Shown: positions 1 through 29,546 of the stretch, in pieces
Layout: each line of letters starts with the position of its first letter
How positions within the stretch are numbered: the stretch's first letter is position 1
Source: Psammoneis japonica
Taxonomy: Eukaryota
Reading direction: 5' to 3'
Length of the DNA stretch: 64,000 nt
NCBI GenBank assembly: GCA_008632985.1
Contig: QPGO01000085.1
Span: 186,001-250,000, forward strand
The notes under the pieces: model-generated
What the model was told of the DNA's origin: nothing
What the model saw: the letters and a program-made list of their open reading frames with translations, nothing else
Database searches by the model: none
Program-made: the position numbers and the translations under genes

Positions 1-1920
1 CTCTTGATCACAGACCAGTGGTTGCTTGGTGGTGGTGACAGTTGATTCAGTGGTTCTGAAGGGACAAGCCAGCACCAACTTCCCATGTGGGACAGTGCCG
101 GCTCATCTGGCTGGATGGAACTCAAGATCTGCAAAGGCAGAAATGAGTTGCACATGCAACTGCAATGCTCATGCAAGTGTTGACAAAACCACATGCTTCA
201 GAGTGGGGTCTTTGCCATTTCTCTGAGAGTTTGGCAACAATGGCATGCAGGGCAGCTTTTCTTCTTTTCTGATTGACCCGTCACATGACACAACCAAAGG
301 GGCAAAGTGGCATCGTTGGTCAAGGCAAGGCTTGAGGCACTTGCACTTTTTCTCCTTTTCATGGGCCTCTGGGACTTTTTCTGGATCTTTCAAGTGATGC
401 AATTTTGCATCCGTGTCTGCAACTTGGACATCAAACATGGCATCAGTCAATCTTTGTCACCAACCTCACACTGGAATGTCACCTCGGTCACCTGTCTTTT
501 GACTTGCGAAGGTTCTTGGAGACATTGGCTTGCCCACTCTTCTTGGTGTTGTCCACTGAGCTCCTTGAGTTGTGGATGGGGTTGGTTTTGAGGTTTGTCA
601 CATGCTGAAGAGGGCTTGGTGGATTTGCCAAAAAGATCAGCCAGCTCGTCTCTGACTTTGTCATGTCAAGAGATGACTGGGCCACTTTCTTGCACTCCAG
701 TGCATGTTGTGTAGAAAATTTGCATCCATGTCCATCACACTCCTGGGGCAGGTTGGGAGGTGTTTCAGCACAGTGCACATGAAGGGCATCATGGAATTCG
801 TTGCTCGACAGCTCCACTCCATTCACGATGGAAGGGTGGACAGACAGCCAAGCACCTGTTTGTGTGCTTCTTCGCGTGGCTCTGGCTTTCTTGTCCTGCA
901 GAGTGCTGAGGCCATTGCAAAGTTTGCACTTGTTTGCAACATTCTTGTGCTCCAGAATGGTTGACTTGACTTCTTGGAGGTTTCTTGGTGAACCGCCGAT
1001 TGGAACTGAGCGCTCACCAGGGTGCTCGATTCACAGTTGTCTGGGGCAGACTTTGTGGGATGAGGGATTGAAAGTCCAGAAAATTTGATGGGTGGGGCGG
1101 ACAGGGCAATCCTGGGATCATCTTGGTCAACGTGTCATTGAAGAGTGCCGGCAGGAAGTGACAAGTGATCGCTTCCTCACTCTCTGCAAACGAGTCACAC
1201 CGCAGTTCTTCGCCACACACTGGACGCATTGCCACTCATGTTGCAGAGATTTTTGAATCCCTGCATGCACCATCTGGGGACACTTTGCTGCAATGTTGGC
1301 TGGACCTTTGACTGCGCTTGTCCACTTCTCGGACTTTTCCTCCATTCATTTCCTGAGTTCTTTCTCCCCTCGCCGATGAAACCGCCACATGGCGTCTGCC
1401 TCTTCCAGTGGTGACAGAGAAGCCAAGGTCACCAAAGTGACACTTTGCTGCCTCCAAGTTGCAACTTGTGACTGCTGAGATGTTCTTCTCATTGTCGTCG
1501 GGGTGACATCTGACTTGTGAACCTGGGGGGCTCTCGCAAGCGCAGGAAGAATGCTCTGATTCTTTCAAACCTTCCTGCGGCAGCTGAGTTGTCAGCACAC
1601 CATGGTGTGAACATGCCAGGGAATTCTTCATTGAGTTGCTTGACTGGTGGCAGAAGTCCCAGTCCGCAAGCAACCATTGCAAGCAGGTCGCCCTGCGTGA
1701 CACCTTCCTTGCGAAGAGGAAGAATGCCGTGCCGAAGTGTCCCCTCGGATGACTGGGACACTCCAATGCTTGCAGCAGTCAAATGTGAATCGGGTGCCAG
1801 AGGGCCAGATGTGTCCAACGCTGCAGAGCATTGGGATCCCATTCTCCTCGTTGAAGCCGTTGAAGGTGTCGATGAAGAGGAATCCGAGTTCGTCTTCGAA
1901 TTTGTTCTGACACAAAGAAT
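1..1920 (-). mobile_element. Decayed, 5'-truncated non-LTR retrotransposon with RT and C-terminal restriction-like endonuclease (CRE/R2-like RLE group)
   Basis: Minus-strand fragments GFLFIDTFNGFNEEN, EGVTQGDLLAMVACGLGLLP and PWCADN (decayed WYADD) are RT motifs. HALECKK is a zinc-knuckle remnant. DAMFDVQVADTDAK..HEKEKKCKCLKPCLDQRCHFAPLVVSCDG is an RLE motif. Many frameshifts; Tyr replaced by Cys/His. Confidence 0.88.
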
Positions 1921-1921
1921 T

Positions 1922-2451
1922 GACACGGGATCCACGGGTGCACCCGGGAATTGCGGGATGAAAGGGGAAAGGGGCAAATGGGAATGTTGGGAAAGCAAGG
2001 GGCCATCATTTTACATTGAGGGACCCTTAGTCAGCCGAACACGCACATTTCTCATTTGACCATCATAGGTCCGTCTCATGGGGGGTGCCAAAACGTCGTG
2101 CTTTGCCGCGTCTCGAGGATTAATCGTTATATAATTTATTCAGCTATTGAGGTTATATAAAATTGAAAATTCACACATTTAAAGCACGACATTTTGACAC
2201 CCCCCGTAGACGACCTGTGATGGTCAGATGAGAAATGTGCGTGTTCGGCTCACTAAAGGGACCCTAAAGATACCACCATTTGCACTCAATGATCGATTTC
2301 GACCAAATGCACACTTTTTGCCATACCCTGGTGTTGCCTGGTGAATCCGTGGATGCGGTGGTAAAATAATAGCATGTCACTTTTCCACAATTCACATTTG
2401 CCCTCCCTTTCATCCCGCATTTCGCAGATTCCCCTGGTGCCTGTGCTTGTC
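1922..2451. mobile_element. Older MITE-like element with degenerate ~90 bp terminal inverted repeats, containing a nested MITE
   Basis: tgcgggatgaaaggg..gggcaaatg..attttac (~1952-2014) is the imperfect reverse complement of gtaaaat..catttgccctccctttcatcccgca (~2361-2419). Confidence 0.55.
2020..2264. mobile_element. PIF/Harbinger (Tourist)-like MITE
   Basis: ~85 bp near-perfect inverted repeats (2020-2104 and 2181-2264) around an AT-rich core. Ends are GGG...CCC. Flanks tga/taa are consistent with a TWA target duplication. Confidence 0.75.
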
Positions 2452-2609
2452 GGAATTGGCACGTTTCGCGCGCGATTAGTACGGCGTTTTCCTAGATGAC
2501 GCTTGCTGCTGTCACTTCTTTTTCAACTAACTGCCGCCCGCTTATTGGCTTGGATGGATGCACACACCACCAGAGATGAAACAGGATCATTTGATATTCG
2601 TCTTTTGCC

Positions 2610-3904
2610 ATGAAGACTAATAATGTAACAAATGCTCTCACTGTCGCTCTGTTTGCGTGGTTGCTTTTAACCATTTTGATTTTGTGGAACGTTTGGGTGA
2701 AGAAGGCGACGAGTGAGGTTGGTGAATCACCACTTCTTCACAGCCATGTTGTTTCACGAGCGCAGTGGTTTCGTCAACAAAAAAGCATCCAAGCCAGTTT
2801 CCGCCGATTGAAAAAGAAAAAATCAACATCGTTCCAAACAAATTTCATTAAAGAATGAAAGATCGTCCTGGATCACGGGAAACATGCACAACGTTTTCGC
2901 GGAGCTCAAACAGAAGAAGGCAGAGAACAACTTTTCAGCCAGAGACGTACCAGGAGGGATGAAAATATTCCCACAATATCTTTTCGGCCAGATATTGTAA
3001 GGGATTTGGAGAGCTTGAAGAATTTGGAGAGCTTGAAGAAATTGGAGAGCTTGAAGAACGACCCAAGGCGGACACTAGTTCATTTACACATTAGCAAGAG
3101 TGGTGGTACATCATTTGATGGGATTGGGGACAATCTCGCAAAAGACTCGGGACGAAACTACGTCGGTCATCGCCACTTTGATTGGTCTTATATTGACAAG
3201 CTATCGAATGTCACAAAGGTAGACGTAGTCATGTTCTTGCGACACCCTGTCCCTCGCGCAGAAAGTCATTTTTATTTCATAAAGAACCAGATATGGACAA
3301 GGCAGCTTCCAATGTACAACCAAACAATCGAAAGTACCTTCATGATCCAAAATCATTGTTACAATGCCGTGATGTGTGGCAGGATCAACAAGCGTCCATC
3401 ATGTGGCTGACAGGAAACCACATTGCCAAGTGGGCACATGGTACAGGACATATATCTCCCGAAGAAAGAGACGAAATGGAGAAGCGAGGGTTGGACTACG
3501 TCAAGATGTGCCATCTTGCAGCAAAGCGGTTGAATCAAACATTGTGGTTTGGTATCTTGGAGGACCGTGAACGCTCAATGGAGCTCTTACAACATGCCCT
3601 CAAGCTCGACTATAGGCCTGAGCTCCCAACAGCCAACACAGGGGGAAGAAAAAAGCAGGCTCAACCACTCTCCGAATGGTCCCGAAAAGCGTTCGAATCT
3701 CTCATGCCACAGGATATCTGGCTCTATAATTACGCCAAGACTTTGTTTGAGGCACGATGGGTTGAATACAAGACTGGAGTCTTTACGGCACCAGAGTTAC
3801 CACCCCTACCAGATTTGCCTTGCAGATCGACTCGCTTCGAGCTGAATTGCACATCGGGTCCACTGGCTGAGTCTGGACCCCTCCACTTTAAGCACATATT
3901 TTAG
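2610..3904 (+). CDS. Golgi-type (type II membrane) sulfotransferase, copy 1; frameshifted (pseudogene or assembly error)
   Basis: N-terminal TM helix; HLHISKSGGTS (5'-PSB motif) and FLRHPVPRAESHF (3'-PB motif). Paralogous to 11375-12523. Frame breaks near 2820 and 3335. Confidence 0.8.
3005..3059 (+). repeat. 18-bp tandem repeat x3 encoding LESLKN/K in the sulfotransferase stem
   Basis: ttggagagcttgaagaa occurs three times in tandem. Confidence 0.9.
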
Positions 3905-3984
3905 AATGGTAAATAATCGCTGGGCCTACTCAGTAAAGACTGCTGTTTTTTTTTTAATGAATAAGCTGTCATCTACAGTAGAGT

Positions 3985-4214
3985 TTACCTCAAGAAATGC
4001 CTGTTTGGCTGCTTGATGTTTTCTTTTATATTCAATTCCTCCAACTTCTTGTCCATTTCATCTGCAATCTCTGTGGGGTAAAGTTCCTTTGGAAGTGGTG
4101 TCTAATTGTCACCACCCTGTCCCTTTCTGCATTCCCCATGGATGCTTTCTTTGCATTTTGAAACCTGATCATGTCCAAGCAGCACCCATGATTAAAGAGA
4201 AAATGAGCATGTTC
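3985..4214 (-). pseudogene. 3' remnant of a paralog of the 14242-15441 methyltransferase, truncated by an insertion
   Basis: EHAHFLFNHGCCLDMIR aligns to EHAHLLADHGCYLDTVR; ttcctttggaagtggtgtct is shared. Homology stops abruptly after gagcatgttc (~4214). Confidence 0.85.
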
Positions 4215-7200
4215 AAAACACCTCTCTTTTCCCCATTCTTGATGCTCACTCTCATCTTCACTCATTCATCCCCACATTTGTCCACACTGGTGGTGTGCCA
4301 TCCATCATTTTTGCTGAGAGCAAATTTCCTTTGGAGGCCTGCCATCTCTTGGCTTGGTTCATCTCCACTTTTGACTGTGCATGTTGATCGGCAACACAAA
4401 AGGCCACAATGACATGGCTTGTCACTGCAACTCCCATTCCAGCAACATTTCCCAGATGAAGAGGGACTGTGACACTCCCCCCAGCATTTTAGCAACAATC
4501 CCTTGTTTGCTTGCAATTTGGTGGAACAAGAGAACATCCAGGGCATGGTGGAGGCTTCCATCGTGGCTGTGGAGGAAAGGCATCATGGCAAGGTGACTCT
4601 GCTGCTTGTGAACGGTGCAAGGATGTTTCCCAGCACTTGGCTCATCCCATCTTTTGGGATGTTCCTCATGGCAGAGGAAAGCATGGCATTTGCGGCATGC
4701 TCCCATGGGAGCTGTTGCATGCCTTGCACTTTGGTCTTTACAAGCACTCACTTCATGCATTCTTCAACTTGTGTCAAGTCCCAGAAGACATGCTGTCATG
4801 GTGCCACAACGTCATGTTGGTGACTGGGAAGCCACAATGGACAAATGACCATCTGTTGCCTTCAAGGAGCTCCCTGAGTTGTTTGATGAAGCTGAGTTCA
4901 AGAGACACTTCAGAGTTGCAACACATGCGTCCTGAAGACAAAGTGATTGAAAGATGCCAAGAACTCCATTTAAGAATGGAGCCACATGCCAGACTCGTCT
5001 TTCTGGCCAAGAGCATCCAGGTTTGTTGCTGGCAACACTTGCTGCAATGAAAGGCATGCTGTCAAAAGAAGACAACAGCCTTGAGCCACTGGAGAGTCAC
5101 TTTGCCCACCCAATGCTCATGTCATTCGGATTGGATGCAGCACTGTCCATGTCCTCTGACATGGAAAGCTTTCTCACTTGGCTTCAGAAAGGCCTTGTCA
5201 AGCATCTCCAATTGTTTCAATCCACAGTCGGCCCATTCAGAGAGTGCCGTTCTTGCTCCGGACTTTGCATGTCCAAGTTCCACAGCCTTTTTCACTTTCT
5301 TTTTTATGTGCATCAGTGTGGCAATGCCAACAATTTTTTTGGTGGATTCTGTGAAGCTCTTCTCAAGATGCTTCTTGAGCAACCTGCCAAAAACACATCA
5401 TTGACAGGACAGGCTGGACCTTGACATGTGATGAATTGTTGCTGCAAGGACCTTGTGGTCAGGGAATCAGAGAAACATTTGCTCAAGGCAGGTTGGCTGT
5501 GTGGACAAGAGGAAAAGGCTCTGCTGTTGCTTCATCATCTAATTGCACATGCACGGACCCCGCAACAGGATTCAAACCTCACAAATCTGTGTTGACAGCT
5601 GCCTGCATTGCAGTGGCAGGTCAAGTCAACAGATCATGGTCTGTAAAACATGGCAACAAGCAGCTGGAGACACTGTCCTCCTGTCCATTTGTTCCAGGTC
5701 ATTGTGGCAATGAATGGGCGGCTGCATTGCTGGATCATGCAGATCAGTGCAAAGCTTTCCCATTGACCCCATCAATTTTCATTTTGGATGTGATGCTCCA
5801 GCTCCTCCAATGACAAACATGACATCCTGAGATGTCACCCAAACTTTCACTCCCATCTGTGGGAACAAAGGAGTTGGCATGCTGGGCCATGGTCAGCTGG
5901 GACAACAACGAAATGAGCTGTTCCGTTGCTGCACGTGTGTTGTTGTGGGCAACCTTTGAAAACAAAGCAACCGGCCACAAATCAATGGTTTGTGCCATCC
6001 AATCTCTTTGAAGCTTCAAACCATCAAAAGATTCTTTGCTTTCCTTTTTTTGTTGGTGATGAAATGGAGCCCGATGTCTGAGTTGTTGATGCTTCTGATG
6101 TTTTGTCTGCTGCCTTTGTCCTCCCATCAACAAGAAGGTCCCCACAAGACCACTTTCCTGACAATTTGGAGGACACCACCCATTTTGTTGTGATTCTGCT
6201 AAGAACTGACTGGTGCCAGATGACTGCGTCATCAACAGAGGAACATTTGGACCCTGAAAACTTGGGTGAGTGCTGGCAAATGCTTGAAACATGCAACCAA
6301 ACATTGTCCCCTGTCAAATTTTAACCAACAAGCCATCACAGTTAATTGGTTGCATCAGTGGAGTCCAATGACAGTGATCCCATGGACAACAATGATTCGA
6401 TGCTGTCTGTGGGGGGCTCTGTTGACAGCAAGTCAAGCTCAGAAAATGTTTGTCCATGATCAATGTTTGTTTTTGGCGAGCTGATGAAAGAGAGGTCAAG
6501 AGCTGTCTTTTGCTTGGGAAAAGCACCGCTGTGCTGTTCTCCACTGTCATCGTCAAATGTTCATTTCTCCTTTGCAACCGTTCTTTTTGGTTGACTAGAA
6601 AGTCTGCCTTCAACCCCACTGACAAGGATGGGGACACAACCAAACACTCATTCACCATGTCATGCAAAGTCTGCAGCAAGGGGACTGTGTTCTTTCCCCA
6701 AAAAGCATCGCAGCTTGGGTGTGGCATGCATCCCAGGCAGTTTGCTTTCAGCTCTGATGTGATGCACTGAACCAACTCACATTTTCCAATGCTTTTCTCT
6801 GACAAGGAATTGCCAAGCAACAACACATTCAATGGTTTGCAGCATTGCAAAAAAGCTTTTGTGTGTCCCTTCCATGCAACTTGAACAATGTCCCTGTGTT
6901 GTTTCACACCAAAGGCCACTTTGGGTGTTGTGCATTTTCTTCCAGTCTGTTGGTTGCACCCAACTTTTGTGTTTCCAATGCCACTGTGCAGTGGAAATGG
7001 TGAAACATCAGCCAGCACAATGCCCCTGTTCTTGGCTTGGTCGAGCATGCACACTCTTTGTTTTGTTGTTTTTTCCTTGCGTGAATCAAGTGTGTTGTTC
7101 TTTGGGCCACACATCATTGTTTGTTTGATGGCAGAGAATGCAGAGAAAAGAGTTGAAAAAGAGGGGAAAAGTGTTTGCATCACCTGCATCACCGTGATTG

Positions 7201-8203
7201 GAAACACAGACCCCGTGATGTTTCTCAATGATGCTTTGCAGGACTGTGGGAAACAAGGCACTGCCGGCCTTGGGTGGCAGAATGTGTTCGATTTGTGTTC
7301 GGAGGTGGGAAGCAAAGGCATTTTGTTCTTGACCTTCCCATGAAGTTGAGGGCCAACGGGCCAACCTTCTTCTGAAACTTTTGACAAACTTCAGGCTTGT
7401 GGAATTCATTGTCAGACCTGTCCTTTTCATTTTTCGGATTTTTTGGGAAAAGATGTTCCCAAGCCATCAAGGCAAAGGGACATTTGGAGTTTGCGCCGGC
7501 ATCCAGGAGTGAATGGTGATTCATGGTGTTGCCAATCCCTTGTTTGGACAGAAAACCCAGAGAGAATAGAAGAGAACTGCCCACCTTTGAGTTGCCCATC
7601 TTCTTTGCAAGGTTGGTCTCCAAATTTGTCATTTTGCTGGCATGAAGGGTCTGTTTCTGAGCTTTCTGGAGAGAGGATGTGGTCTTGTTGGCAGTTTCTT
7701 GCACATCTTTTTGTTTTGGTTTTTGCAGAAGCCATGCATCAACCAGCAAAACAAAAGCCACATTCTGCAATCTTTGCCAGACATTTGGTTTGGGTTCATG
7801 CCACAAATGGTGCGATGCTTGGAGGCTCCAAGCAGCTCGGCAGTCTTGTGGGAAGGGACTTCATTGTGCTGCTGGAGAAATTCAATGTCCTCTTTTTGAA
7901 TTGGAGAGCAACAGTTCTCAGACACATCATTGGAGGAGTTGGCTTCTTCGTTGGTGGAGGCAGCAGCTGCGGCAGCAGCTGCAGGGTTGTTGGCCGGCGG
8001 AGCAGCTGTGCAGATGGAGAGCCTTGAGGATGCCAAGGGCCAGTCCTGGAGCCTTGCCTGGGTGGCCTGTTGGCAGCAGCTTGGCCTGGTGCTTGAGCAC
8101 CTCCACTGCGACCTCTGCCACAGCCACCTGTGCCGCTGGTGTTGCTGGCATTGTTGCGGCCAGCCACTGGCGGGCTCACCTTCTTCCTTTTTTTGGGCGG
8201 CAT
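4215..8203 (-). pseudogene. Large decayed coding region of unknown origin: N-terminal NLS-like motif and possible UDG-superfamily-like domain
   Basis: Starts MPPKKRKKV at 8203. The 6314-7387 frame contains RGIVLADVSPFPL, KPLNVLLLG and MPHPS. TpA is nearly absent throughout. Confidence 0.4.
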
Positions 8204-9479
8204 GGTCAACAAGAGCACAAAATGGAAAAAAAGGATTGAGTGAAGTCCTGGAAATGGGAGTGCAAAGGCAAAAATGTGAAATTTCCAATCTCAACAAGAA
8301 CACTTTAATGTGATGAAATGAAGCTTGTTGAACAAATTTGAGACATCAATGGCCACATGATTCATCGAGGTTGTTTGAAATCATTCAAACCATCGCATCA
8401 CAATGCAAAGATTGAAAATTTTAAAACCAAATGTTGTTGCTAAAAAAGAGATGCTGGTGGGAATCAACAGATGGTGAGGTTTACAGTTTGGCCAAAAACC
8501 AAAAACACGAATTGTCCCTCCCCCTCAAGACACAGAAAATGCAAACTCAAGGCGCAAGCAATGAGAGAGGCAGTGACAGGCAGCAGCATTGCGGCTGGGA
8601 CAGGATCAAGCACAGGACACAAGGTGAGAAAGACAAAACAAGTGGTGAGTGCATGGAGATGGGGTGCACAATCCAAGCAACTGACACTTGCACACATCTT
8701 TGCACACAGAAATCCAGACAAGGGACGTGGGCAGCAACGGAAGATGGAGCAGCAATGGAAGACGGGGCAGCGGGGATGGGCAACAAGCAAAACCCACTTT
8801 TTGGTGTTTGCATGGTTCAGGCAACACAGAGGGGGGCACTGACAAGCCTTTTTTGTCACATCTGCTGCAGACCCAGCGTTTTTCTTGGCAGGCAGAGGGG
8901 CCGCCATGATGTGACCATGAGAGAGAGGGAGGCTGGCCACCACTGTTTTGTGCTGGTGTGGGGAGCCTCAAAATTTTCCAAACAGAGCAAAGATGGTGTT
9001 CTTCATTTTGCAATTTTCCAAGACCAGGTGGCATGATCACACGTCGATCTCAGTGTTGACACTGCAGTCACATTGAGTCCTGTGTGAGATGCTGCTGGAT
9101 GGAAATCTCTTCGAGGGGTGTCCGTCAGCCAATGGACCATGGAGATTTGAAAAAAATGGTTGCACTTGGCCTGTCCTTCCATGCGTTCACAAAACTTGTG
9201 TGGGATTCTACACACGCAACATTTCGTGGGGCGATGCTGAAATGGCAGTTGCGCCAATCAGGCCTCATTCAAATTTGTGTGAGAGGCCAACACAAATGGC
9301 ACTTTCACGATGATGATGCGGCGGCGGCGTCTTCAGCACGTTCCCGCAGCCATGCCACAGCAAATGCTTCTAGATGTGACAATGTGTTGGAAAGTTTGAA
9401 AGAGATCTGTCTCATTGGTGGCGTCTCTGACGGTGTTGTTTTCAACATAAATTTGTGGACTGGACCACACATTGTGGCA

Positions 9480-10720
9480 GGGCTGAATGTGGCAGCACTG
9501 GTGGCGGCAGGAGCCTTTTGCTGCTTTTGCACTGGGGGTGGCTGGAGCCTGTGCACCACTGTCCTTTTTTATCTGGTGGCAGTTGGCACCCCTGCATGAT
9601 GCTGGTGCTGGTGGTGGTTGGAGCTTTTTTGCTGTTGGCCAGTGGTTGCAGTGGGATCCTGTGTGTCGCTGCCACTGCAGCACTGGTGGCGGTGGGATCC
9701 TGTGTGCTGCTGGCACTGGAGGTGGTTGGAGCCTTTTGCTGCTAGAACTGGTGACAGCAGCAGCCTGTGTGCTGCTGCTGTAGCACTGGTGGCGGTGTGA
9801 GCCTGTGTCCGGCGGTTGGAGCCTGTGCACTGGCAGCCATCGAGGCGTTTGGAGCCTTGTCATGTGATGTCGGTGGGTGCCCCTGCATGCTGTTGGGACT
9901 GGTGGTGGTTGGAGCTTTTTTGCTGCTAGCCAGTGGTTACGGTGGGAGCCTGTGTGTCAAGGCCAGCACTGGTGGCGGTGTGATCCTGTGCAGCACTGGC
10001 ACTGCAGGCGGTTGGAGCCTTTTGCTGCAAGCACTGGCGGGCAGCAGCAGCCTGTGTGCTGCTGCTGTAGCACTGGTGGTGGTGTGAGCCTGAATCCTGT
10101 ATGTTTGCTGGCACCAGCGGCGGTTGGAGCCTGTGTGCAACCATCTTTTTTTATCTGGTGGCGGTTGGCACCCCCGTGTGATGCTGGCACTGGTGGCAGT
10201 GGGAGGCTGCATCCTGCACAGCTGCCAGCACTGGCGGCAGTTGGAGCCTGTGCACCACTGTCCTTTCTATCTGGTGGCAGTGGGTGCCCCTGTATGATGC
10301 TGGCACTGGTGGCAGTGGGAGGCTGCACCCTGCACAGCTGCTGGCGCTTGCGGCGGTTGGAGCCTGTGCACCACTGTCCTTGTCATCTGGTGGCGGTGGG
10401 TGCCACTGGCATTCGAGGCGGTTGGATTCTTTTTGTCTGGTGTTGATGGTGCCCCTGCATGCTTCTGGCAGTGGTGGTGATTGGAGGTGTTTTGCTGCCA
10501 GCAGTGGTGGCAGTGGGAGCCTGTGTGCTGCTGGCAGTGGTGGCGGTGGGAGCCTGTGCACAACTGCTGGCAGTGGTGACGGTGGGCGCCTGTGTGCTGG
10601 TGGCACTGGAGGCGGTTGGAGCCTTTTGCTGTGGGTGCTGGTGGCAGTGGGAGCCTGTGTACTGCTAGCACTGGCAGTGGTTGGAGCCCATGTAACACAC
10701 CAACCGTCGGCGGCGGGATC
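9480..10720 (-). repeat. Degenerate ~33-36 bp coding-like tandem array (Pro-rich HRLPPPPVPAA or APTATSAS frames)
   Basis: Many copies of gcactggtggcggttggagcctgtg variants, plus a higher-order ~100-bp unit at ~10120-10410. Confidence 0.8.
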
Positions 10721-11374
10721 TTGACCGGTGGCGACTCGTGGAGAGATTGCTTGGGGGTTTCAATGCAATCACATGTTTAAAAACCAGTGCTTTAGATTAT
10801 TAACGTAGATCTTAATGATGGTGATCTCTTGTCTCTATATTCTTTTGATGATGTGGTGCAATAGTGTCTTCTTTTTAGCATCGCGGCCGATGATTCACCA
10901 CACTAGCTACTTGCACCACGTCTGATTTTCATCTCGGATGCATGGCGACGGACGGACAGTGCGACCAATTTTTCCGAATCTCCATAGTCCATTCGAAAAG
11001 TCATTGAAGTGATTGACACTTTCCGATCTTTGGACAAATACCACATGCATGGATGATGATTCGTCACGAGGTTTTTTCTCTCACACATTTCCCACACGAC
11101 ACAGCATTTGAACAACGTTTGGCATCGGTTTCGATTCTGTTCTTTTTGCCGAGCAACTTAAGCAGTGCGCAAGGGCTCCAGGTGCTGCATCGAGGGATAA
11201 CATCCTCCTCGCTCTTCAGTGCAAGGACCAGTCGAGTCTACGCCGGGTCGCGTTATTTTCATATTATTTTCATATGCCGTGAGGTGGCCCCTTTTTCAAC
11301 TGCCCCCACCTGCTTTTGCTCGATGCGCACAAGAAAGACACGGCAACGTAGAAATAAAGTCATTGGATAGTTTG

Positions 11375-12523
11375 ATGCCTTTTATGATGAAGACCAATCA
11401 TCTAACAGCTGCTCTCACTGTCGCCTTATCGGTGTGGTTGCTTTTCACCGTATCGTGGCAGGTTCGGGTGGGGAAGGCGAGTAATATTGGGGTTGGCAGA
11501 GCATCACTGCACGGGCATGTTGTTCCACGAGCACAGTGGCGTAGTCAACAAAGAGACATTCGAGTCAACTATACACCGCAAACGGACAAAACATCGTTTC
11601 CGACAAACGCTCTTCAAGGACGAAACGTCGTTGTCAGGCATCTTGGAAGAGTTGTAAAACGCAGGAACAAAACTACTGTCAACGATCCAAGGCGTGTACT
11701 GGTTCATTTGCATATTGCTAAGAGCGGCGGTACATCGTTGGATGATATTGGGGAAAAACTCGCACATGACTCCGGACGTCGCTATTTTGGAAATTACCAC
11801 TTTGATTGGTCCCGTATTGATGAGATGCCAAACGTCACAAACGTAGACGTTGTCATGTTGTTACGACACCCCGTTTCTCGCGCCGAAAGCCATTTTCATT
11901 ACATTAAAGACCAGGAATGGACAAGGCAGCTTCGAATGTACAACCAAACAATTGAAGAGTATCTTCATGATCCCGAATCATTGTTACAGTGCCTTGATGT
12001 GTGGCAGGATCAACAAGCATCCATTATGTGGTTAACTGGAAACCATATTGCAAGCTGGGTAAGTAGGTCTATATCTCCCAAAGAAAGAGATAAAAGGGAA
12101 CAGCGGGGGTTTGACCACGTCAAGATGTGCCACCTTGCAGCGAAGCGATTAAATCAAACACTGTGGTTTGGTATCTTGGAGGACAGTGAACGCTCTATGG
12201 AACTCTTGCAACATGCTCTCAAGCTCAACTATAGACCACAGCTCCCAAAATCCAATGTTGGGATGAAAAAACCAAAGATTCAGAAGATCTCTGAATGGTC
12301 CAGAAAAGCGCTCGAGTCTCTCATGCCTCAGGATATTTGGCTATACAATTATGCCAAGGCATTGTTTGAGGCGCGATGGACGGAGTACAAGACGGGAGTC
12401 TTTGTAGAACCAGAGTTACCACCCCTGCCAGACTTGCCATGCAGATCGAATCGCTTCGAGCTAAATTGCACAGCGGGTCCACTAGCTGAATCTGGACCCC
12501 TATACTTTCAACGCGTACATTAG
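11375..12523 (+). CDS. Golgi-type sulfotransferase, copy 2 (intact)
   Basis: Uninterrupted ORF; TM anchor LTVALSVWLLFTV; HLHIAKSGGTS; LLRHPVSRAESHF; WFGILED; DIWLYNYA. Confidence 0.88.
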   Translation: MPFMMKTNHLTAALTVALSVWLLFTVSWQVRVGKASNIGVGRASLHGHVVPRAQWRSQQRDIRVNYTPQTDKTSFPTNALQGRNVVVRHLGRVVKRRNKTTVNDPRRVLVHLHIAKSGGTSLDDIGEKLAHDSGRRYFGNYHFDWSRIDEMPNVTNVDVVMLLRHPVSRAESHFHYIKDQEWTRQLRMYNQTIEEYLHDPESLLQCLDVWQDQQASIMWLTGNHIASWVSRSISPKERDKREQRGFDHVKMCHLAAKRLNQTLWFGILEDSERSMELLQHALKLNYRPQLPKSNVGMKKPKIQKISEWSRKALESLMPQDIWLYNYAKALFEARWTEYKTGVFVEPELPPLPDLPCRSNRFELNCTAGPLAESGPLYFQRVH

Positions 12524-12627
12524 AATGGGAAAGATTGCTGTCTAGCTAAGACTACCGTTCCTTTGTCTATAAATATCATATGTCATCGATCTAGACTTCA
12601 CCTCAGAAGAGTCTGTTTGGCTGCGTT

Positions 12628-12849
12628 CATCTCCAAAATTCCTTTTACAAGTTATCCCTGTGTCCAGAGAGGACTCGTAGCAAGTGTTCCAATCCGTGCT
12701 TCTTTCTTGTGGGCTCACTGGCGTCGATACATAACATGATCTGAAGGCATCTCCAAAATTCCTTTTACAAGTTATCCTTGTGTCCAGAGAGGACTCGTAG
12801 CAAGTGTTCCAATCCGTGCTCCTTTTGTTTAGAAATAACATGATCTGAC
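12628..12849. repeat. Direct tandem duplication with 120-bp period
   Basis: catctccaaaattccttttacaagttatcc..ccaatccgtgct at 12628 and 12748. Confidence 0.92.
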
Positions 12850-13084
12850 CAGGGAGATTTTGGCGCGACACCCCGTTATTCCGGCCGCCGCTGCCTGCTC
12901 GCGGCGCCGTCCAGTCTGGCCATCAACCGTTGATGTGTTCGGTGCGTTTTTTTGTCGTTTTGCCGAGGACCAAAAAGGTTTCAACCAAGCTACTGTAAGC
13001 CTTAAAAGGCAACGGGTCGACGCTATTATACCACGCATGCTAATGATAGGCTTGCACTTGATAGTCACGTACTATGCGTACAAA

Positions 13085-14179
13085 ATGATGCGACATGTTA
13101 CTGCTTTTCGCCTCAAGGCCAACAATGTAACAACAGCTCTCGCAGTCGCCTTGTCGGCGTGGTTTCTTTTCACCGCATCATTGTATGTTTGGGTGGAGAG
13201 GGCGAGTAGCCTTGGGGATGGGAGATCATCGCCGTACGGCTATGTTGTTTCACGAGCGCAGCAGTGGCGTCGCCAAAAAAGAAATGTTCGAGCCAGTTAC
13301 AGTGGACCGCAAACTGACAAGCCATTGCCGTTTAAAGGACAAAGGGTCGTCGGGGATCGTTCATTAGTTCATTTACACATAGGCAAGAGCGGTGGTTCAT
13401 CATTAGATAGAATTGGTTTCAAACTTGCACAAGACTCGGGACGTCGCTATGTGGGTTATCGCCACTTTGATTGGTCCTACATTGACAAGATATCAAACGT
13501 CACGAACGTAGACGTTGTCATGTTCTTGCGACACCCCGTGGCTCGTGCCGAAAGTCACTTTGATTTCGCCAAAGGTGACGACTGGACAAGGAAGCTTCGA
13601 ATGTTCAACCAAACAATCGAAGAGTGCCTTCATGATCCAGAATCGTTGTTGCAATGCCGTGATGTGTGGCAGGATCAACAAGCATCCATCATGTGGTTAA
13701 CTGGAAACCACATCGCCAGCTGGGCAGGCGCACCTCCCGAAGAAAGAAGAAAGGGAACAGCGGGGGCTTGACTACGTCAGATGTGCCACCTTGCGGCAAA
13801 GCGATTAAATGAAACATTTTGGTTTGGCATATTGGAGGACCTTGAACGTTCCATGGAACTCTTACAACATGCCCTCAAGCTCGACTATAGACCTCAGCTC
13901 CCAAAATCCAATGTTGGGATGAAAAACCCAAAGGCTCCGCCGCTCTCCGAATGGTCCAGAAAAGCGCTCGAGTCTCTCATGCCTCAGGATATCTGGCTCT
14001 ATAATTACGCCAAGACATTGTTTGAGGCACGATGGGTTGAATACAAGACTGGAGTCTTTACGGAACCAGAGTTACCACCCCTACCAGACTTGCCATGCAG
14101 ATCGACTCGCTTCGAGCTAAATTGCACGTCGGGTCCTCTAGCTGAGTCTGGGCCCCTCTATTTTCATCTAGTAACTTAG
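13085..14179 (+). CDS. Golgi-type sulfotransferase, copy 3; frame break near 13745-13780
   Basis: Same motifs (HLHIGKSGGSS, FLRHPVARAESHF). The C-terminal ORF 13781-14179 is near-identical to copies 1 and 2. Confidence 0.82.
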
Positions 14180-14241
14180 TATCTGCTACTGCGTAAAGAC
14201 TGCCGGCGTCGTTCTTTATGAATGTCACCTGCGTCTATAGT

Positions 14242-15441
14242 TTACCTCATTTGACGTCTGCCTGCTGGCTTGATGCTTTTCTTAATCATTTCCTCCCATT
14301 TCTTGTCCATATCATCTGTCATCTGTAAAGGGTAAAATTCCTTTGGAAGTGGTGTCTCGTTCTCGCCACCATTTCCTGTTCCGCATTCCTTATTGATAAT
14401 TTCTCTTCGTTCGCGCGTCCTTACTGTATCCAAGTAGCACCCATGATCTGCAAGCAAATGAGCATGTTCCGGGAGAGCAGCAACGACCGGATTGATGAAT
14501 ACTATCATGTTTAGCCAAACATCTGCCCCACGACGAGAGAATCAAACATCCAGTGAGGCGCAATTAGCGGCATGAGGTATCACTCAAAAACGTCGGATTA
14601 GAATACTTACGTTGCGCATTGTACGCTTCCCCGTTCGGGCAGTCAAGTTTCGTTTCGTTTCTTCCATCGCAGTCCGATGAATCTTTTGGGTGAGTTCGTC
14701 TGAGAAACGAAAGCCATACATTTCGAACTTGGTTATCCACCACTCTCTGTCATGCACTTCGACATGATGCCAACCACCCCAATTGCTGTGCGTAACAAAG
14801 AGCAAGGCGGCCTTCCGAAAGGCTGGCAAATAATTTTTATGAAAATTCCTTCCAACGTGTTCCAGAAACTCCACAGACCAAACAGCATCGACGGTTCTAG
14901 GAGGCCACCAGGGGCCTCTTGAAAAATCATGCTCAGTCACAACGTCCTTTACAATGTTCTGCTCAACCGCATCGTGACTCCCTTCTACACATAATGTATC
15001 AACTCCATGCATTTTAAACCACGACGTGGATATGCCGCGACCGCAACCCACGTCGAGGAGTGACTTGACACCAAGCTTGGAAACCATGTACTTCCACGTG
15101 TGTGGAGAAACGCCAAATCCGTCGTACTCTGTAAATCCTCCCAAATGCGCCTTGTCACCGGCTCCGCCGTATATGTTTCGGTTGATCTTTTTGGCTTGGG
15201 CTTTTGTGATTTGAACCGACGGCAGTGCTATTGCGGGGCCTTTTTCATAGTCTAGAGAGTACAAATTTTTGTTGTTTTGATTTACAACCTCCTCGGGATA
15301 GGTAGGTATTGCCATGCTTGTATCGATGGAAACTCGATTGTACTGATATGTCAGCTGGAACACCAGCACATTGGAACACAAAAGCAGCAATAACCACATG
15401 ACACCGCTGCTGCGTCCCGCAACACCCAAAGACGACTTCAT
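14242..15441 (-). CDS. Class I SAM-dependent methyltransferase with N-terminal membrane anchor; intron ~14523-14610
   Basis: SLLDVGCGRG motif I and WSVEFLEHV. The gtaagt donor at 14610 and cag acceptor at 14523 rebuild YNAQHVWLNM. One frameshift near 14640. Confidence 0.82.
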
Positions 15442-16029
15442 GAGAAAAGAAAAGAAGCTGCTGAAGCAATTCAAGACAACAAAGAAGAGACAAACTGGGA
15501 GCGTGCGGTAGTTTGGGTTTGATATAATGCCATATGGAGCAACTCTATAAAAAGCAAAGTAGCAATCTCTCCAAACGATTGTTGCTGTGATTTCAAGGGG
15601 CAAGCATTGTCAGTCATTTCAAAATATTTGGTTCGTCAGTAGCAGCTCAGTACAAATCTACGTCAATAACTATTATTGCGATACTGGTGAGAACACCGTT
15701 AAACACGGACGTGCTCGCTCGACGGTGCCCCTTGTCACTCGATCCCGTCAAGTCGTGTGTTGCGTTTTTTTGTCGCATTTGAATTTCTAGCCGCGCCGGC
15801 AAGCCGGCGATTTGTCGTTGCGACACACAATGCGACTTTTTTTGGAATTTTAGTACATTATATAAAACCTATAAGTACGAATAAAGATATTCAACGGTTG
15901 ATTCCCGCCAAAGATTTCGTGACGGACCAAACCGGCGACCAACATCCACAACAAAATATCTTCTCTCTCAATTCCTCGTTCATTTATTCTACGATCATAG
16001 GTTAAACCCGGTTGCGTGTCATCATCACC

Positions 16030-16932
16030 ATGAGGATGTACTTTGTGTTCCTCTCCACCTTTCTAGTGGCAAAAGTCTCGGGTGAGAACCATGTCCATCG
16101 TCTACGTAATCAGGACGAAACGTTGTTTGGTCGAGCGGTTGACGAGTCCGATACACCGGAAAGCCTGAATGAGTTGTTTGTGGACGATGAAGGTTTGTGG
16201 GCGAGGTTCTTGGGATCTTCCATGTCTATGAGTTTTGGTGGTAGCATGAGCATGAGTATGAGTATTGACACGTCTTGTGTTCCCAGTGACGTGCCGGAAT
16301 TTGTGATTGACAACGATGTGGATGTCGGAGACACCATGATGCGTCCGGGACCGGCTTTTGCCGAATCCTGTGGTAAGGATTGTATCACCGTCAAGGACAA
16401 TGGAGACGACCCTCCGTTTGACCCAGAACGTGGCGATACGTTGCGCTTTGCCTACAAGGAAACGTCGGGAGACTTTTCGATTCAATCGCGTGTTTGCGGC
16501 ATGGACTGCGATAGCGACGGATATGACGGCATCTTTGGCCGGACTGGCCTGTCTGTTCGAGAGAGTCTTGATCCTTTTGCGAGAAACATTTTCGTGTCTC
16601 ACAGTCCCAATGCAATGGCTGACTGGTCTTGGAGGCTCGAACCCAATGGAGACACTGTGTCCAGCGAAGACGGAAGTCCGGATGTTCCGTGCCTTTGGAT
16701 TACGTTGGTTCGAGAAGGCAACGACTTTACCTTTTCTTATGCCTACGAATCGGATGAAGAGGGCGGTTGCAAGCAAGATGGGGAGTCGGTGGAAGTCCTT
16801 ACGCAGACGGTGAAGATTGACATGCCCAATAAAGTCCTTGTGGGGCTCGCGGTATCCTCCAAAGCACCAACGCCCCCGTTCTGCGTATTCACGACGGCAG
16901 ATTTTAGAGATATCGAATGCCGTGGCTGTTGA
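16030..16932 (+). CDS. Secreted protein with SMSMS tract and ConA/laminin-G-like beta-sandwich domain
   Basis: Signal peptide MRMYFVFLSTFLVAKVSG; HRLR; WARFLGSSMSMSFGGSMSMSMS; GDFSIQSRV..GRTGLSVRESLDP..VLVGLAVSS. Confidence 0.7.
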   Translation: MRMYFVFLSTFLVAKVSGENHVHRLRNQDETLFGRAVDESDTPESLNELFVDDEGLWARFLGSSMSMSFGGSMSMSMSIDTSCVPSDVPEFVIDNDVDVGDTMMRPGPAFAESCGKDCITVKDNGDDPPFDPERGDTLRFAYKETSGDFSIQSRVCGMDCDSDGYDGIFGRTGLSVRESLDPFARNIFVSHSPNAMADWSWRLEPNGDTVSSEDGSPDVPCLWITLVREGNDFTFSYAYESDEEGGCKQDGESVEVLTQTVKIDMPNKVLVGLAVSSKAPTPPFCVFTTADFRDIECRGC

Positions 16933-17189
16933 GACAGTTTTATGATGACGTCGATGATTAGTTGGTCACTTATTTATTGGGAAAAGTAGTTGACAAGATA
17001 AGCCAGTACAGTAGTGCGAGTAAACATATTTCAAGTGAAACCGCCAAGTACACTTACCCGAACTCCCGTGATGGCAGGCTTCTCATGCGTATTTCGCGCG
17101 ATCAACGATGAAGTGAGCTTGAAGCATGACTGAACGATACGCGCTTCTGCTTTTTTACCTTTTTGTTTCACTCAAAACCCTTGCCCACC

Positions 17190-17551
17190 ATGACTGAAAT
17201 GCGCAACTTGACAGCATACTTTGGTTGCTTCGACGGAACCGGCAAACCTTGGTCCGAGGTTGAGCCATTCTACAACCAGGCCTTTTCCACGGATGTAAGC
17301 ATTGTGACAACGACAACAAAGGGCAAATCGAAATATGGTTTTGACGATTGGAAAGACTTTCTTCAATACAGTTTGACAAGGAAAGCTGAATTCACATGAT
17401 CTCCCTCAATCTATTGCCGGACAAGCATGCTATCGAGTATTCGGCTAACCTAATCTATCCGGATAAAGACGAACCCATTCCGTTTGCTAGCACTGGGTAC
17501 TTCAACGAAGAAGGGAAACTCATCAAGATTGTTCCACTAGAAAAGAAGTGA
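17190..17551 (+). CDS. Small protein, possibly NTF2/SnoaL-like fold; one frameshift near 17390
   Basis: MTEMRNLTAYFGCFDG.. continues in another frame to ..STGYFNEEGKLIKIVPLEKK-stop. Confidence 0.5.
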
Positions 17552-17642
17552 ATCGAGTGGCAAATGAACATAGTTTTATAGTTTACTTTACAAGATTAAC
17601 ATGAAGCACCCATTTTCCTTATGACAGGACTCGTCAATCTAT

Positions 17643-19059
17643 CTATGAATCCTTGACCTGTTCGTACGCCCACTTGAGCCAAGGCATGAGATCCTGTACA
17701 TCCTTCTTTTCCACGGTAGATCCACACCAGATACGAATAGAGGGCGGAGCATCACGGTAACCACCAATATCAAGGGCCACGTTTTCCTTCTCAAGCAACG
17801 CAACGAACGCCTTGATCTGGTCGGCATTCAAGTCCAATGTGAGACACACCGACGTGGACGACCTTGTAGCGGGGTCCTTGGCCAAAAAGTCAATCCAATC
17901 GTTCTCTTGCACAAAGGATTCCACAACTGCCAGATTGTCCTGAGACATTTTGATGAGAGCATCGACACCCCCGACCGAGTCGGCCCATTCCAAGGCATCA
18001 ATGTAATCTTCGACAGCCAACATGGAGGGGGTGTTAATTGTAGACCCCTTGAAAATGGCGGCATCGACCTTGCCCTTTTTCACCATGCGGAAAATCTTGG
18101 GCAAGGGACGGTTTTCGGGAGTCCACGATTCCAATCGCTCCACCGCACGAGGACTCAAAATCAAAATACCGTGTCCACCCTCTCCGCCCAAGACCTTTTG
18201 CCACGAGTACGTTGTCACATCCAGCTTTTCCCAAGGCATATTCATGGCAAAGCATGCAGAGGTTGCATCGCACAGTGTCAATCCGGTACGGCTGTCGGAA
18301 ATAAAATCACATCCGTCGGCTACACGAACACCCGAAGTGGTTCCGTTGAAGGTAAAGCAGATATCATTGTCGGGGTTGACTTTGCTCAAATCAGGCAGCT
18401 CACCATAATCAGCAGTATGCTCATTCACTCAACCGAATCTCTCAATTTCAAGTGAGAAATGGCATCGGCAAACCATCCCTTCCCAAACGACTCCCAATGG
18501 CAGACATCGACATTTCGTTGGCCCAGCATGTTCCACATTGCCATTTCGTATGCACCCGTGTCTGAGGCGGGGACAATACCGAGCAGATAATCATCCGGAA
18601 CTCCCAAGAGACGCTTGCTCGTGTCAATGGCATAGGCCAAACGTTCTTTTCCAATCTTGCTACGGTGTGACCTTCCCAAGGTGCGTGAATCAAGGCCGGA
18701 GACATCATATCCCGGGCGTTTCTTACAGGGACCTGACGAAAATTCAGGATTAGCGGGCTAAATAGCAAACATAACACAGATTGGAATGGTTAAGTATGTA
18801 TATAGTATGGCACACGAGAAAGGCTTGGACAAGTCAGATCTTTGCCTTTATTCATCGGCCCATCATTTTGACGAGGTGCCGGCACATTATTTATTTTTTG
18901 TTCTTTGCAACACTTGAATCAACATACCTTCACTGTTGGAGCAGCTGCACTCATCATGCGCAACCCCGCAAACTGATGTTGCTTCATAACGACATGACGA
19001 AAGGAAGAAGATGTGTTGACAAAGGCAACAGCACGGGCGGCGGGTCCAAGACGCATCAT
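17643..19059 (-). CDS. serC: Phosphoserine aminotransferase (Methanosarcina/alphaproteobacterial type) with organellar presequence; intron 18758-18927
   Basis: [50 protein letters not shown] (PLP Lys), [14 protein letters not shown]. Frameshift near 18430. Confidence 0.92.
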
Positions 19060-19522
19060 GGTTGTTGGTCGTTTTTTCGAAAAATGACGCTGGTCACAAA
19101 CTCCATCGTCACGTGCAAATACTTTATTCAGACTTGTAGGTAATTCAGTGTTTTTGTCGGAGGGAGCTCAGCCGCACAAAAAAATGGCGGGAAACGGATG
19201 GCGGCGAGACGAGAAAAAAAATGAGGCGACGTCATGGTCGCTTCCGTCCGTAGTTTCGAATCCAATGAAATTTCGTCAAAGAAGGACCAATTGGGAAAGA
19301 CAGAGAAGAGTGAACAAATCAATCTCTGCCGTTCCCTGATCTCTAGACATACTTGGAGCATTGCACAAGTAGGTGTGCGGTACTATATCTCTCTAGTAAA
19401 GCAGCGAGGATAGAGTCGGCTCGAAATAGTGCACTTCTAGCTACTAGTAAAACCGAAGCACCAAAGAAAAAAAGAAATTAGATCTCAAATTCTATTCTAG
19501 CCAACAATAACAAAATCGCCTA

Positions 19523-20053
19523 TTATATTCCAGGAAGAAAGTTATCCGGGTCGCTCAGATAGATGTTTCTCACAAACAGAAACGAACTAAATGCCACTGC
19601 AAGCACAGTATATGCCTTGATCTTGGAGAGTCTCTCAAAATCTTCAATTTCTTTGCGAACTTCATCTCCGCGTCCCTCTTTTTCAGCTTCTCCAATTCTA
19701 CCCTCCTTCATGCTCTTGTATCCCAGCGATTTGTAATACTCTTCCTTCTTGTCAAGCGCATAGTAGAATCCGGGATTTTCCAAAAAAGCATTGTACTCGT
19801 CTTCGGCTTGTTTTCGGGTCAGACCGCCTTGCTTCATTTTTTCCTCCACGACGCGGTTGTAATCATCGGGATCCATGAGTTTTTTGGCACGTGCAATTGG
19901 ACCCATTGTCGCAAACAGCGACGTCGTCGTGGAAGTGTGCGGCAGCGACAGCTTTCGATTGGCCATAAAGTGTCGTGGTACAATGTTAAAGGCTGTCACG
20001 GCTACGGAAACCAATGTCACAAGGAACGCGAGAAGGGTTAATCTTGTCACCAT
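19523..20053 (-). CDS. Probable plastid-targeted protein of unknown function with C-terminal TM helix
   Basis: Signal peptide ending VTA-F followed by a Ser/Thr-rich transit peptide; 176-aa clean ORF. Confidence 0.75.
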   Translation of the reverse strand: MVTRLTLLAFLVTLVSVAVTAFNIVPRHFMANRKLSLPHTSTTTSLFATMGPIARAKKLMDPDDYNRVVEEKMKQGGLTRKQAEDEYNAFLENPGFYYALDKKEEYYKSLGYKSMKEGRIGEAEKEGRGDEVRKEIEDFERLSKIKAYTVLAVAFSSFLFVRNIYLSDPDNFLPGI

Positions 20054-20934
20054 GGTTTAAAAGGCAGCCGCAGTCTAGTTGTCGCTCAAGAGAGGAGTTT
20101 TAGACCTGCGTCGGGCGAATTTGGCCATTGCGCCACTTGCCGCCGCGAAATATCTTTGTGACGTCACAAAGATCCAGATCTACTGGTATTACAGGGGTCA
20201 CCGATCTAGTGTTTATTATTTATTATCCCGGACGATTACTTATTCGTTAGACTTTATTGGCGAAGAAACGTGACAATTGCATTTAGGTAACTTTTATTCG
20301 AACATTTAGTGTGAGTTTAACTTATGTCATTAATGACGTCATAGGGGTCTTTCTGGCTAGGCGTGCGTCGGAACTGCCTGACACCGGCCTCGTTTGGCGT
20401 CGAAGGCTTAAAATTAAAATAGTAATAGATGATGTCATCAACATAAGTAGGAAAATGTCCGACTTGTCTTCATGTCTCACGGATTTTATTTATGAAAATA
20501 ATAAACACTGCATTTACGGTCAAATATAGAAATAAAATTATTTGGATTCGTTAGCAATACAATGCTCGTGGAAATAATACGAAAAACAATAAACACTAGA
20601 TGTGCGCGCTGCGCGATTTCGATTAGATCAGCGATGCCTGTACTGTAGACCAGCGCCGCGAACAAACCAAAGCAAGAGCAAAAATCGACCAAGGCCAAAA
20701 CCCTTCCGGCATTGTTGAAACAACGTTTGTTTGTCAATTAGAGAAGACTTCCATCTAACGAAACAGTATGAGTACTTCTGCCACCAGTGTCAACAGTCAA
20801 ATCCCGCGTTCAAACAAAACACCACCAGCAATGACGCGCGAGACAATGGCTGGAACGTGACCAGACCCATCTGCACTACAACACGACGGGAGACTGTGAC
20901 GACTACTTGCCGATTAAAGCCAGCCGCTTGTTGC

Positions 20935-21062
20935 AGAGTGTCCTTTTTCTGTCCAAGAACGTAGAGGACTCTGACGGAGAAGTGTCGGGTAGAGCCGCGT
21001 GTTTCAGAGTATCATTCTTCTGTCCAAGAGCGTAGAGGACTCTGATGGACAAGTGTCGGGTA
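20935..21062. repeat. ~70-bp tandem duplication
   Basis: ttctgtccaaga.cgtagaggactctga.gga.aagtgtcgggta occurs twice. Confidence 0.85.
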
Positions 21063-22699: not shown

Positions 22700-23001
22700 G
22701 TTTCTCGCTTTCACCACGATTCGATTTTTTCGTTCTATGTATGCTTTTTTCGTCGTATGCTTTTTTCGTCGTTCTTTTTACGCATCACAATGGAAAGTTA
22801 TAATTAGTCACGATTTGAGCGTGTATGCACTTTTATTGGACGTTTGTGGCTGTTTTCTCCTTGAATTATTTCCCGGTTTCGTTTCTCGCTTTCACCGTGC
22901 TTGAATCGAGTCGCCTTTTTCGTTCTGCGTATGCATTTTTCGCCGTTCTTTCTACCCACCACATTGGAACGTAATCGCTAGTCATGTTTTGAGCGTGTAT
23001 G
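22700..23001. repeat. Diverged ~180-bp-period duplication
   Basis: gtttctcgctttcacc..ttcgttct..gtatgc..tttgagcgtgtatg at ~22700 and ~22882. Confidence 0.75.
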
Positions 23002-29531: not shown

Positions 29532-29546
29532 GGCTTTGTATCAACA

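Follow-up and report, generated by a model that had tools for sequence, protein, structure and literature searches.

The 64,000-nucleotide stretch of DNA from the diatom Psammoneis japonica analyzed here (positions 186,001 to 250,000 of the forward strand of contig QPGO01000085.1, GenBank assembly GCA_008632985.1; referred to below as the window and numbered from its first letter) contains four discrete blocks in which the dinucleotide TpA is almost absent, and two of these blocks hold relics of retroelements. We think it probable that silenced mobile-element relics in the window were hit in place, on both strands, by a process that is specific for TpA and that turned TpA into TpG or CpA to near exhaustion, with a slower decay of CpG alongside. 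Comparisons among related copies indicate this direction and this TpA specificity, and a change that struck both strands of already integrated DNA. It is limited to blocks whose edges span less than 100 bases, and it does not depend on present copy number.

An earlier note on this DNA, made from the letters alone, had counted by eye about one TA, near 712, in the first 2 kb and had treated positions 1–2010 as the affected stretch. We compared observed dinucleotide counts with those expected from base composition (observed-to-expected ratio, o/e) in a 500-base scan of the whole window, together with a list of all TA positions. The depletion at 1–2010 is real, with one TA observed against 118.3 expected (o/e 0.01); the sole TA is at 712–713 and the next is at 2012. 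At the window's background TA rate, 83.9 TA would be expected in these 2010 bases, and the chance of finding one or none is 3e-35. CG is also reduced in this stretch (54 observed versus 131.2 expected, o/e 0.41), and CA and TG are in excess (185 versus 105.0 expected, o/e 1.76, and 219 versus 147.8, o/e 1.48, respectively). The depletion is not local, however, as three further blocks share it. The four TA-poor blocks lie at 1–2011 (block A), about 4104–10660 (block B), 29879–31942 (block C), and 38825–46936 (block D) and make up about 18.7 kb of the window, and all have edges sharper than about 100 bases, a TA o/e of 0.01–0.07, low CpG, and CA and TG in excess (o/e 1.48–2.07). The observed and expected counts are 1/118 for TA and 54/131 for CG in block A, 15/343 (o/e 0.04) and 64/284 in block B (measured over 4194–9200), 8/119 (o/e 0.07) and 44/122 in block C (measured over 29973–31942), and 20/536 (o/e 0.04) and 64/465 in block D, whereas the remaining 45,440 bases of background have a TA o/e of 0.60 and a CG o/e of 0.97. 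The G+C content is nearly equal inside and outside (0.48–0.51 in the blocks versus 0.47 in the background), and none of the four blocks is a copy of another. GC-biased gene conversion was considered as a cause of such a pattern and rejected, because the steps AT, AA, and TT are not depleted at 1–2010 (AA o/e 1.19).

Block A carries on its minus strand, at 1–1914, what appears to be the 3′ part of the open reading frame (ORF) of a reverse transcriptase (RT)-bearing retroelement, some 640 codons, or two thirds of the element, that include RT motifs, a Cys-rich region, and a C-terminal domain. The relic is interrupted by in-frame TGA stops and shifts frame at least six times; its 3′ end falls beyond the start of the window, and it is 5′-truncated, with the 5′ part missing at about 1914. 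An exhaustive phmmer search with the 173-residue frame at 1489–2010 (minus strand) matched 221 proteins at E ≤ 1e-3 (best E 2e-13), the long relatives bear RT motifs, and tblastn matches of nine relatives, spread over all three minus-strand frames, cover block A between 1897 and 50. Pfam found no family in the three minus-strand frames of block A (with X at stops), and the long RT relative P0133, when searched against the PDB by sequence, yielded no useful match. The earlier note had called this stretch a LINE (long interspersed nuclear element) remnant. That it is an RT-bearing retroelement ORF agrees with our results, and its LINE identity is only partly shown, as RVT_1 was scored weakly by three of eight long relatives, all of them under the Pfam cut-off of 29.6 bits; we treat it as a candidate LINE.

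Reading this relic against its relatives reveals what became of its TA-bearing codons. Among 437 reliably aligned codons, all eight conserved Tyr columns are changed in block A, six to Cys and two to His, and the other conserved residues are mostly kept (Phe 11/12, Trp 7/8, Gly 15/16, Pro 14/15). On the sense strand, Tyr to Cys is TA to TG and Tyr to His is TA to CA, and thus both strands have been hit. The RT catalytic motif, W-Y-A-D-D in relatives, reads W-C-A-D-N at 1588–1602 (minus strand), where W137 and D140 are invariant in the alignment, and this confirms the earlier claim that the active-site motif is destroyed. The other Tyr changes cited in that note are partly present: AYG has become ACG at about 1666–1668, but KYP to KCP is absent as written, the nearest change being KYL to KCL in the C-terminal domain. 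Counted over all six frames, Tyr makes up 1 of 4018 codons in block A versus 792 of 33,998 in 12000–29000.

The same kind of damage can be seen among the relatives of the block A RT. We surveyed the catalytic motif in the 150 best relatives of the 1489–2010 frame (P0001–P0150), 106 of which show a readable W-x-A/M-D-D/N. The motif begins with W-Y in 77 of the 106, with W-C in 10, W-H in 7, W-F in 8, and something else in 4, such that Cys or His occupies the position of the catalytic Tyr in 17, and 7 of the 150 (80 residues or more in length) have no Tyr whatever. From these protein sequences, TpA-erasing damage seems frequent in the public data for this RT family. The relatives are not equally free of TpA, as the 77 that retain W-Y demonstrate, and the first condition that the earlier note had set for refuting its inference, intact copies just as free of TpA, thus does not refute it.

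The direction of the change can be read most directly where a block contains a copy of something that also exists outside it. The right end of block C, at 31677–31959, is a mutated copy (copy R) of a repeat whose unmutated copy (copy L, plus strand, 29540–29878, TA o/e 1.08) lies immediately to the left of the block. Over the 280 bases of this repeat (L 29540–29820 versus R 31677–31959), the 22 TA of copy L read in copy R as CA in 11 cases, TG in 8, and CG, TC, and TA in one case each, and transitions outside TA are few. CG fared better than TA in this pair, with three of six kept and three changed or gapped, versus a loss of about 20 of the 22 TA. A second comparison is available at the left edge of block B, where the left 100–200 bases share homology with the 3′ flank of a sulfotransferase paralogue that is unmutated. 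Across the flank at 4101–4320, the paralogue's 10 TA and 11 CG have all been lost, 7 of the 10 TA having become TG or CA. In the preceding 200 bases (3901–4100), 7 of 12 paralogue TA are retained but 0 of 5 CG, and in the sulfotransferase coding part the differences between the two copies are symmetric.

These paralogues bear on a further claim of the earlier note, that the loss of TpA is not a mere side effect of the deamination of 5-methylcytosine (5mC). That note had pointed to many CG persisting at 1100–1950, which the counts bear out (18 in 1001–1500 and 22 in 1501–2000, with the strings cgccgatg and gccgtgccgaag both present); the CG of block A is mostly in its right half, with an o/e of 0.56 in 1001–1914 versus 0.23 in 1–1000. 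Among the parts of all main blocks, TA o/e stays at 0.00–0.07 while CG o/e spans 0.00–0.56, and a sliding-window check of whether TpA o/e tracks CpG o/e thus shows no tracking. At the left edge of block C (29879–30160), CG o/e is 0.70 where TA o/e is already 0.27. Together with the conversion of TA to TG or CA in the paralogous copies (19/22 and 7/10), this CG-independent loss of TA supports the claim. We conclude that two processes appear to have acted in the same domains, a very fast one specific for TpA and a separate, slower decay of CpG. The CpG loss is most simply 5mC deamination in methylated transposons, and methylation of diatom transposons in the CpG context has been reported (PMC9998398, PMC2806351). 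Both processes feed a common sink of TpG and CpA, which accounts for the excess of these dinucleotides and for the unchanged G+C content, and since any given TG or CA may stem from TA, may stem from CG, or may be original, back-mutation of the relics is under-determined.

Somatic-hypermutation-style non-canonical mismatch repair mutates A:T pairs at WA motifs (A or T followed by A), and TpA loss could in principle be a by-product of cytosine methylation if mismatch repair after 5mC deamination recruited an error-prone polymerase that mutated nearby A:T pairs at such motifs. This would explain why TA loss and CpG loss occupy the same blocks and why CpG loss begins about 200 bases ahead of TA loss at the left edge of block B. 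It would not explain why every block has lost TA more completely than CpG, or why TA loss is uniform where CG o/e ranges between 0.00 and 0.56, and AA, the other WA motif, is undepleted at 1–2010. Moreover, when TpA mutations were caught in the act in the chlorarachniophyte Bigelowiella natans, no accompanying GC>AT wave was seen (bioRxiv 10.64898/2026.01.13.699255), and only 1 of 231 mutations was other than A>G or T>C. We consider a methylation by-product improbable, although it survives somewhat better than the other alternatives below.

Block D contains a second mobile element, and its structure provides a way to place the mutations in time. On the plus strand, it holds a Ty1/copia-type long terminal repeat (LTR) retrotransposon with the same TA damage as block A; the copia-type element occupies 40661–46903, with 1.8 kb of mutated DNA to its left, and is bounded by direct repeats at 40661–41002 (5′ LTR) and 46550–46903 (3′ LTR). 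A degraded RVT_2-type RT segment at 43789–44358 (plus strand) reads FHVDN where relatives have WHVDD or FHVDD. This segment is matched by P0271 at E 4.8e-22, a protein that Pfam assigns to RVT_2 (65.2 bits versus a cut-off of 31.6), and Tyr of P0271 is read as Cys or His in block D at five of six positions. Pfam found no family in block D itself, either in its long ORFs or in the three plus-strand frames of each half of the copia interior, as would follow if the removal of Tyr codons leaves proteins that Pfam no longer recognizes. The two LTRs are 76% identical by blastn and 79% identical over 349 aligned columns, where they differ at 74 columns, 61 of these being transitions. There are 31 adjacent double mismatches between them, and 15 of the 31 are CA opposite TG. 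Because the two LTRs were identical at insertion, each of these 15 discordances implies one ancestral palindromic pyrimidine-purine step that decayed independently in each LTR.

Mutation in place is also suggested by the mutated host-like flank at 4101–4320 and by polymorphism in block A. In contigs assembled from run X1 (depth about 54), matches to block A depart from the window at 3 positions over 760 bases and at 5 over 824. Thirteen single-copy differences separate run X1 from the window in block A, of which 8 are CpG versus TpG or CpA and 2 are TA in the run X1 contigs where the window has TG or CA. From the LTR discordance, the flank, and these TA differences, we conclude that the change of TA to TG or CA appears to have struck both strands of DNA that was already integrated. 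This speaks against an editing step before integration, in which RNA or cDNA would be hyper-edited (by ADAR-like A-to-I editing or by a cDNA deaminase) and the mutated copies then inserted, as with APOBEC3-hypermutated retroviruses. It is true that blocks A and D are retroelements, that block edges are sharp (<100 bases), and that ADAR prefers U before the edited A, as stated in bioRxiv 10.64898/2026.01.13.699255. Such editing nevertheless fits poorly with the presence of both TA>TG and TA>CA within one element (8 versus 11 in the L/R pair, and 6 Tyr>Cys versus 2 Tyr>His), with 15 discordant steps between LTRs that began identical, with a duplicated host-like flank that is likewise mutated, and with the TA/TG differences between run X1 and the window, and a conversion of about 95–99% far exceeds one round of editing. 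We judge this explanation unlikely, and slightly more so than the previous one.

The run X1 contigs also bear on whether the footprint exists in the DNA at all. Modified motifs are known to give systematic consensus errors in some long-read assemblies, and a modified base at TpA and CpG in silenced DNA could have been miscalled as TG or CA. The k-mer contigs of run X1 reproduce block A, however, the blocks hold the frame changes, indels, and substitutions outside TA that old relics typically have, and the replacement of Tyr by Cys or His recurs in unrelated database proteins of this RT family, so that we give a sequencing or assembly artefact very little credence. Least credible of all is an intrinsic compositional preference, in which the elements would avoid TA and CG adaptively, for instance as a means of escaping a host nuclease or RNA decay; RNA viruses and expressed RNAs widely avoid UpA and CpG (PMC3829696), but here all eight conserved Tyr including the catalytic one are lost, block A has at least six frame changes plus in-frame stops, 77 of 106 relatives keep W-Y, and the unmutated copy L of the same repeat has a TA o/e of 1.08.

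The right-hand neighbor of block A indicates that present copy number does not set off the process. Block A is bounded by a high-copy foldback repeat, resembling a miniature inverted-repeat transposable element, at 1915–2436, with inverted arms at about 2012–2100 and 2190–2270 and a TA-rich center. Of the interval 1–2010 named in the earlier note, the part up to about 1914 is retroelement, but the last 95 or so bases (1915–2010) probably belong to this foldback repeat. The summed contig depth in run X1 is 1040–3736 for the foldback repeat versus about 54 in block A. The foldback core at 2012–2436 keeps a TA o/e of 0.66. Since block A is at single-copy depth and saturated, and the adjacent foldback, with a depth in the thousands, keeps its TA, present copy number is not the trigger; this statement concerns present copy number only, and past copy number may have differed. 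At position 1996, within the foldback repeat, about half of the run X1 depth reads T, which gives TA versus CA in the window copy.

We return to the preferred explanation, in which a TpA-specific process would turn TpA into TpG or CpA (A:T to G:C) until almost no target remained. TpA is its own reverse complement, and a single specificity, for A after T, acting on either strand would yield both products. An enzyme that reads the palindromic TpA would deaminate adenine to hypoxanthine in DNA on either strand, although modification of T instead of A, for example its oxidation to a G-pairing form, would fit the sequence equally well. In coding sequence, such a process would remove every Tyr codon (TAY to TGY or CAY), and catalytic motifs would die with them. 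Targeting would presumably follow chromatin state, and one hint of this comes from copy L, which is untouched and lies directly against the start codon of an alpha-kinase gene (29531, minus strand). The system would be the same as that behind TpA hypermutation in B. natans, and since experiments catch this footprint in the making in a chlorarachniophyte, it would be an ancient system with a broad distribution across the SAR supergroup (stramenopiles, alveolates, and Rhizaria). That diatoms possess a chromatin-targeted DNA-editing defense of this age and spread, mirroring fungal repeat-induced point mutation (RIP) and relying on an enzyme that naturally edits adenine in duplex or chromatin DNA, is a proposal we put forward tentatively, with somewhat less than even confidence. 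In a bolder variant, one dual A/C deaminase may erase both TpA and CpG toward their shared sink, TpG and CpA.

Several points weigh against this reading. A CA/TG discordance between the LTRs can arise from an ancestral CG just as well as from an ancestral TA, and thus the LTR comparison is evidence for decay of pyrimidine-purine steps in place, not of TA alone. The flank evidence covers about 200 bases. An untouched copy L directly beside block C needs an extra assumption, either active chromatin at the gene start or a later arrival. Run X1 may be the window's own assembly data, in which case its support is weakly independent, and the polarity of the two TA polymorphisms between run X1 and the window is assumed. 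The process itself is deduced here from sequence comparison. Finally, two features of the B. natans system differ from ours, as its targets are nucleocytoplasmic large DNA virus (NCLDV) and virophage DNA, whereas the targets identified here are retrotransposon relics, and as no CpG loss accompanies the TpA loss there, whereas the same blocks lose CpG here.

The remaining features of the blocks and their surroundings can be described briefly. A sequence without TA can hold neither TAA nor TAG, whichever of the six frames is read, and the many long open frames in the blocks are therefore meaningless artefacts. Pfam found no family in 12 long ORFs of the blocks, the sole match being a sub-threshold one to Cupin_5 (E 0.031, 14.8 bits versus a cut-off of 25) that we take as chance. 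A search of proteins of 196–627 amino acids with the longest ORF of block B (6314–7390, minus strand, 358 amino acids) gave no match at E ≤ 0.001. Since only TGA can stop a frame that lacks TA, such a stop-free ORF is expected by chance and should not be annotated as a gene. Searches of block B by tblastn and by a purine/pyrimidine diagonal scan found no mutated copy of the neighboring methyltransferase-like gene past about 4224. At its right end, block B runs into a G+C-rich (59%) nested tandem array at 9564–10688, with periods of 291, 116, and about 32–41 bases, in which TA is only partly depleted (o/e 0.24). This array has long Gly/Ala/Cys-rich open frames on both strands. Three paralogous sulfotransferase-like genes with 79–84% DNA identity lie at 2859–3904, 11201–12523, and 12839–14180; two are in tandem and one adjoins block B, and the 3′ flank of the latter is without any CpG. 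Among named sources, the closest relatives of the window's 709-residue alpha-kinase/vWA protein come from Epithemia, Pseudo-nitzschia, Seminavis, and Nitzschia (50–55% identity), which marks the host as a diatom; its best unnamed relative is 61% identical.

If the proposed process is real, then TpA hypermutation would be a trait that two distantly related algal lineages share and no longer a peculiarity of a single strain, and the question of RIP-like genome defense outside fungi would become testable in tractable diatoms. The rewriting of Tyr and other TA-bearing codons could explain an unannotatable share of the diatom genome, and TA-free runs of at least 200 bases would offer a simple detector for such relics. 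The footprint would also point to an enzyme with TpA-specific A:T>G:C activity on genomic DNA, which would be of interest for base editing.

Among known systems, we compared the footprint with three that change DNA in place and with one class of enzymes. The decay of CpG in methylated transposons resembles part of what we see, as CpG o/e is 0.14–0.41 in the blocks versus 0.97 outside and TpG and CpA are gained, but it cannot remove TpA, and the TA loss here is more complete and spatially uncoupled from it. Fungal RIP turns CpA and TpG into TpA by C>T changes and needs duplicated sequence. Like RIP, the process in the window would be a defense-like, context-specific transition hypermutation of integrated DNA that kills transposon ORFs and leaves a dinucleotide footprint in blocks. 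Its footprint is the mirror image, however, with TpA going to CpA and TpG (TA o/e 0.01–0.07, CA and TG 1.48–2.07), and duplication is not what marks the affected DNA, as single-copy block A is saturated and the high-copy foldback is spared. Diatom DNMT4 is described as a relative of RID, of unknown function (PMC9998398).

The closest counterpart is the TpA hypermutation of B. natans, described in bioRxiv 10.64898/2026.01.13.699255. In mutation-accumulation lines of this alga, two integrated viral regions took 231 of the 302 single-nucleotide mutations in the nuclear genome, and 230 of the 231 were A>G or T>C, all of these GC-biased changes being on TpA. Mutation in these regions ran about 1000 times faster than elsewhere in the genome and was seen in some lines only. 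Reverse transcriptase and DDE domains were over-represented among TpA-poor coding sequences. As the candidate enzyme, the authors propose an ADAT2-like protein (Mettrop et al., 2026). This belongs to the ADAT2/ADAT3 class (amphioxus BjADAT2, Trypanosoma ADAT2), whose tRNA target has U before the edited A and for which A-to-I and C-to-U activity on DNA has been reported (PMC10354150); TpA activity of these enzymes on chromatin or duplex DNA remains a proposal.

Both B. natans and the window show exclusive change of TpA to TpG or CpA on both strands of nuclear-integrated DNA in discrete foreign or mobile regions, with a long-term depletion of TpA and gain of CpA and TpG, and in both the effect is independent of copy number (the NCLDV region is single copy there, as block A is here). 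Confinement to mobile or foreign DNA can be seen for blocks A and D, which are retroelements. Besides the differences in target and in CpG loss given above, the host is a chlorarachniophyte (Rhizaria) there and a diatom (Stramenopila) here, Rho is 0.45 for the NCLDV region there versus a near-saturated TA o/e of 0.01–0.07 here, and the process was measured in mutation-accumulation lines there and is deduced from sequence comparison here. The full-text literature we searched, which leaves most subscription journals outside its coverage, held no report of TpA hypermutation or RIP in a diatom. The footprint in P. japonica is therefore best filed as TpA hypermutation, a phenomenon previously reported only in one unrelated alga, here in a diatom and on retrotransposons, and we place it with the B. 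natans phenomenon on the strength of the specificity, strand symmetry, action on integrated DNA, and restriction to mobile DNA that the two share.

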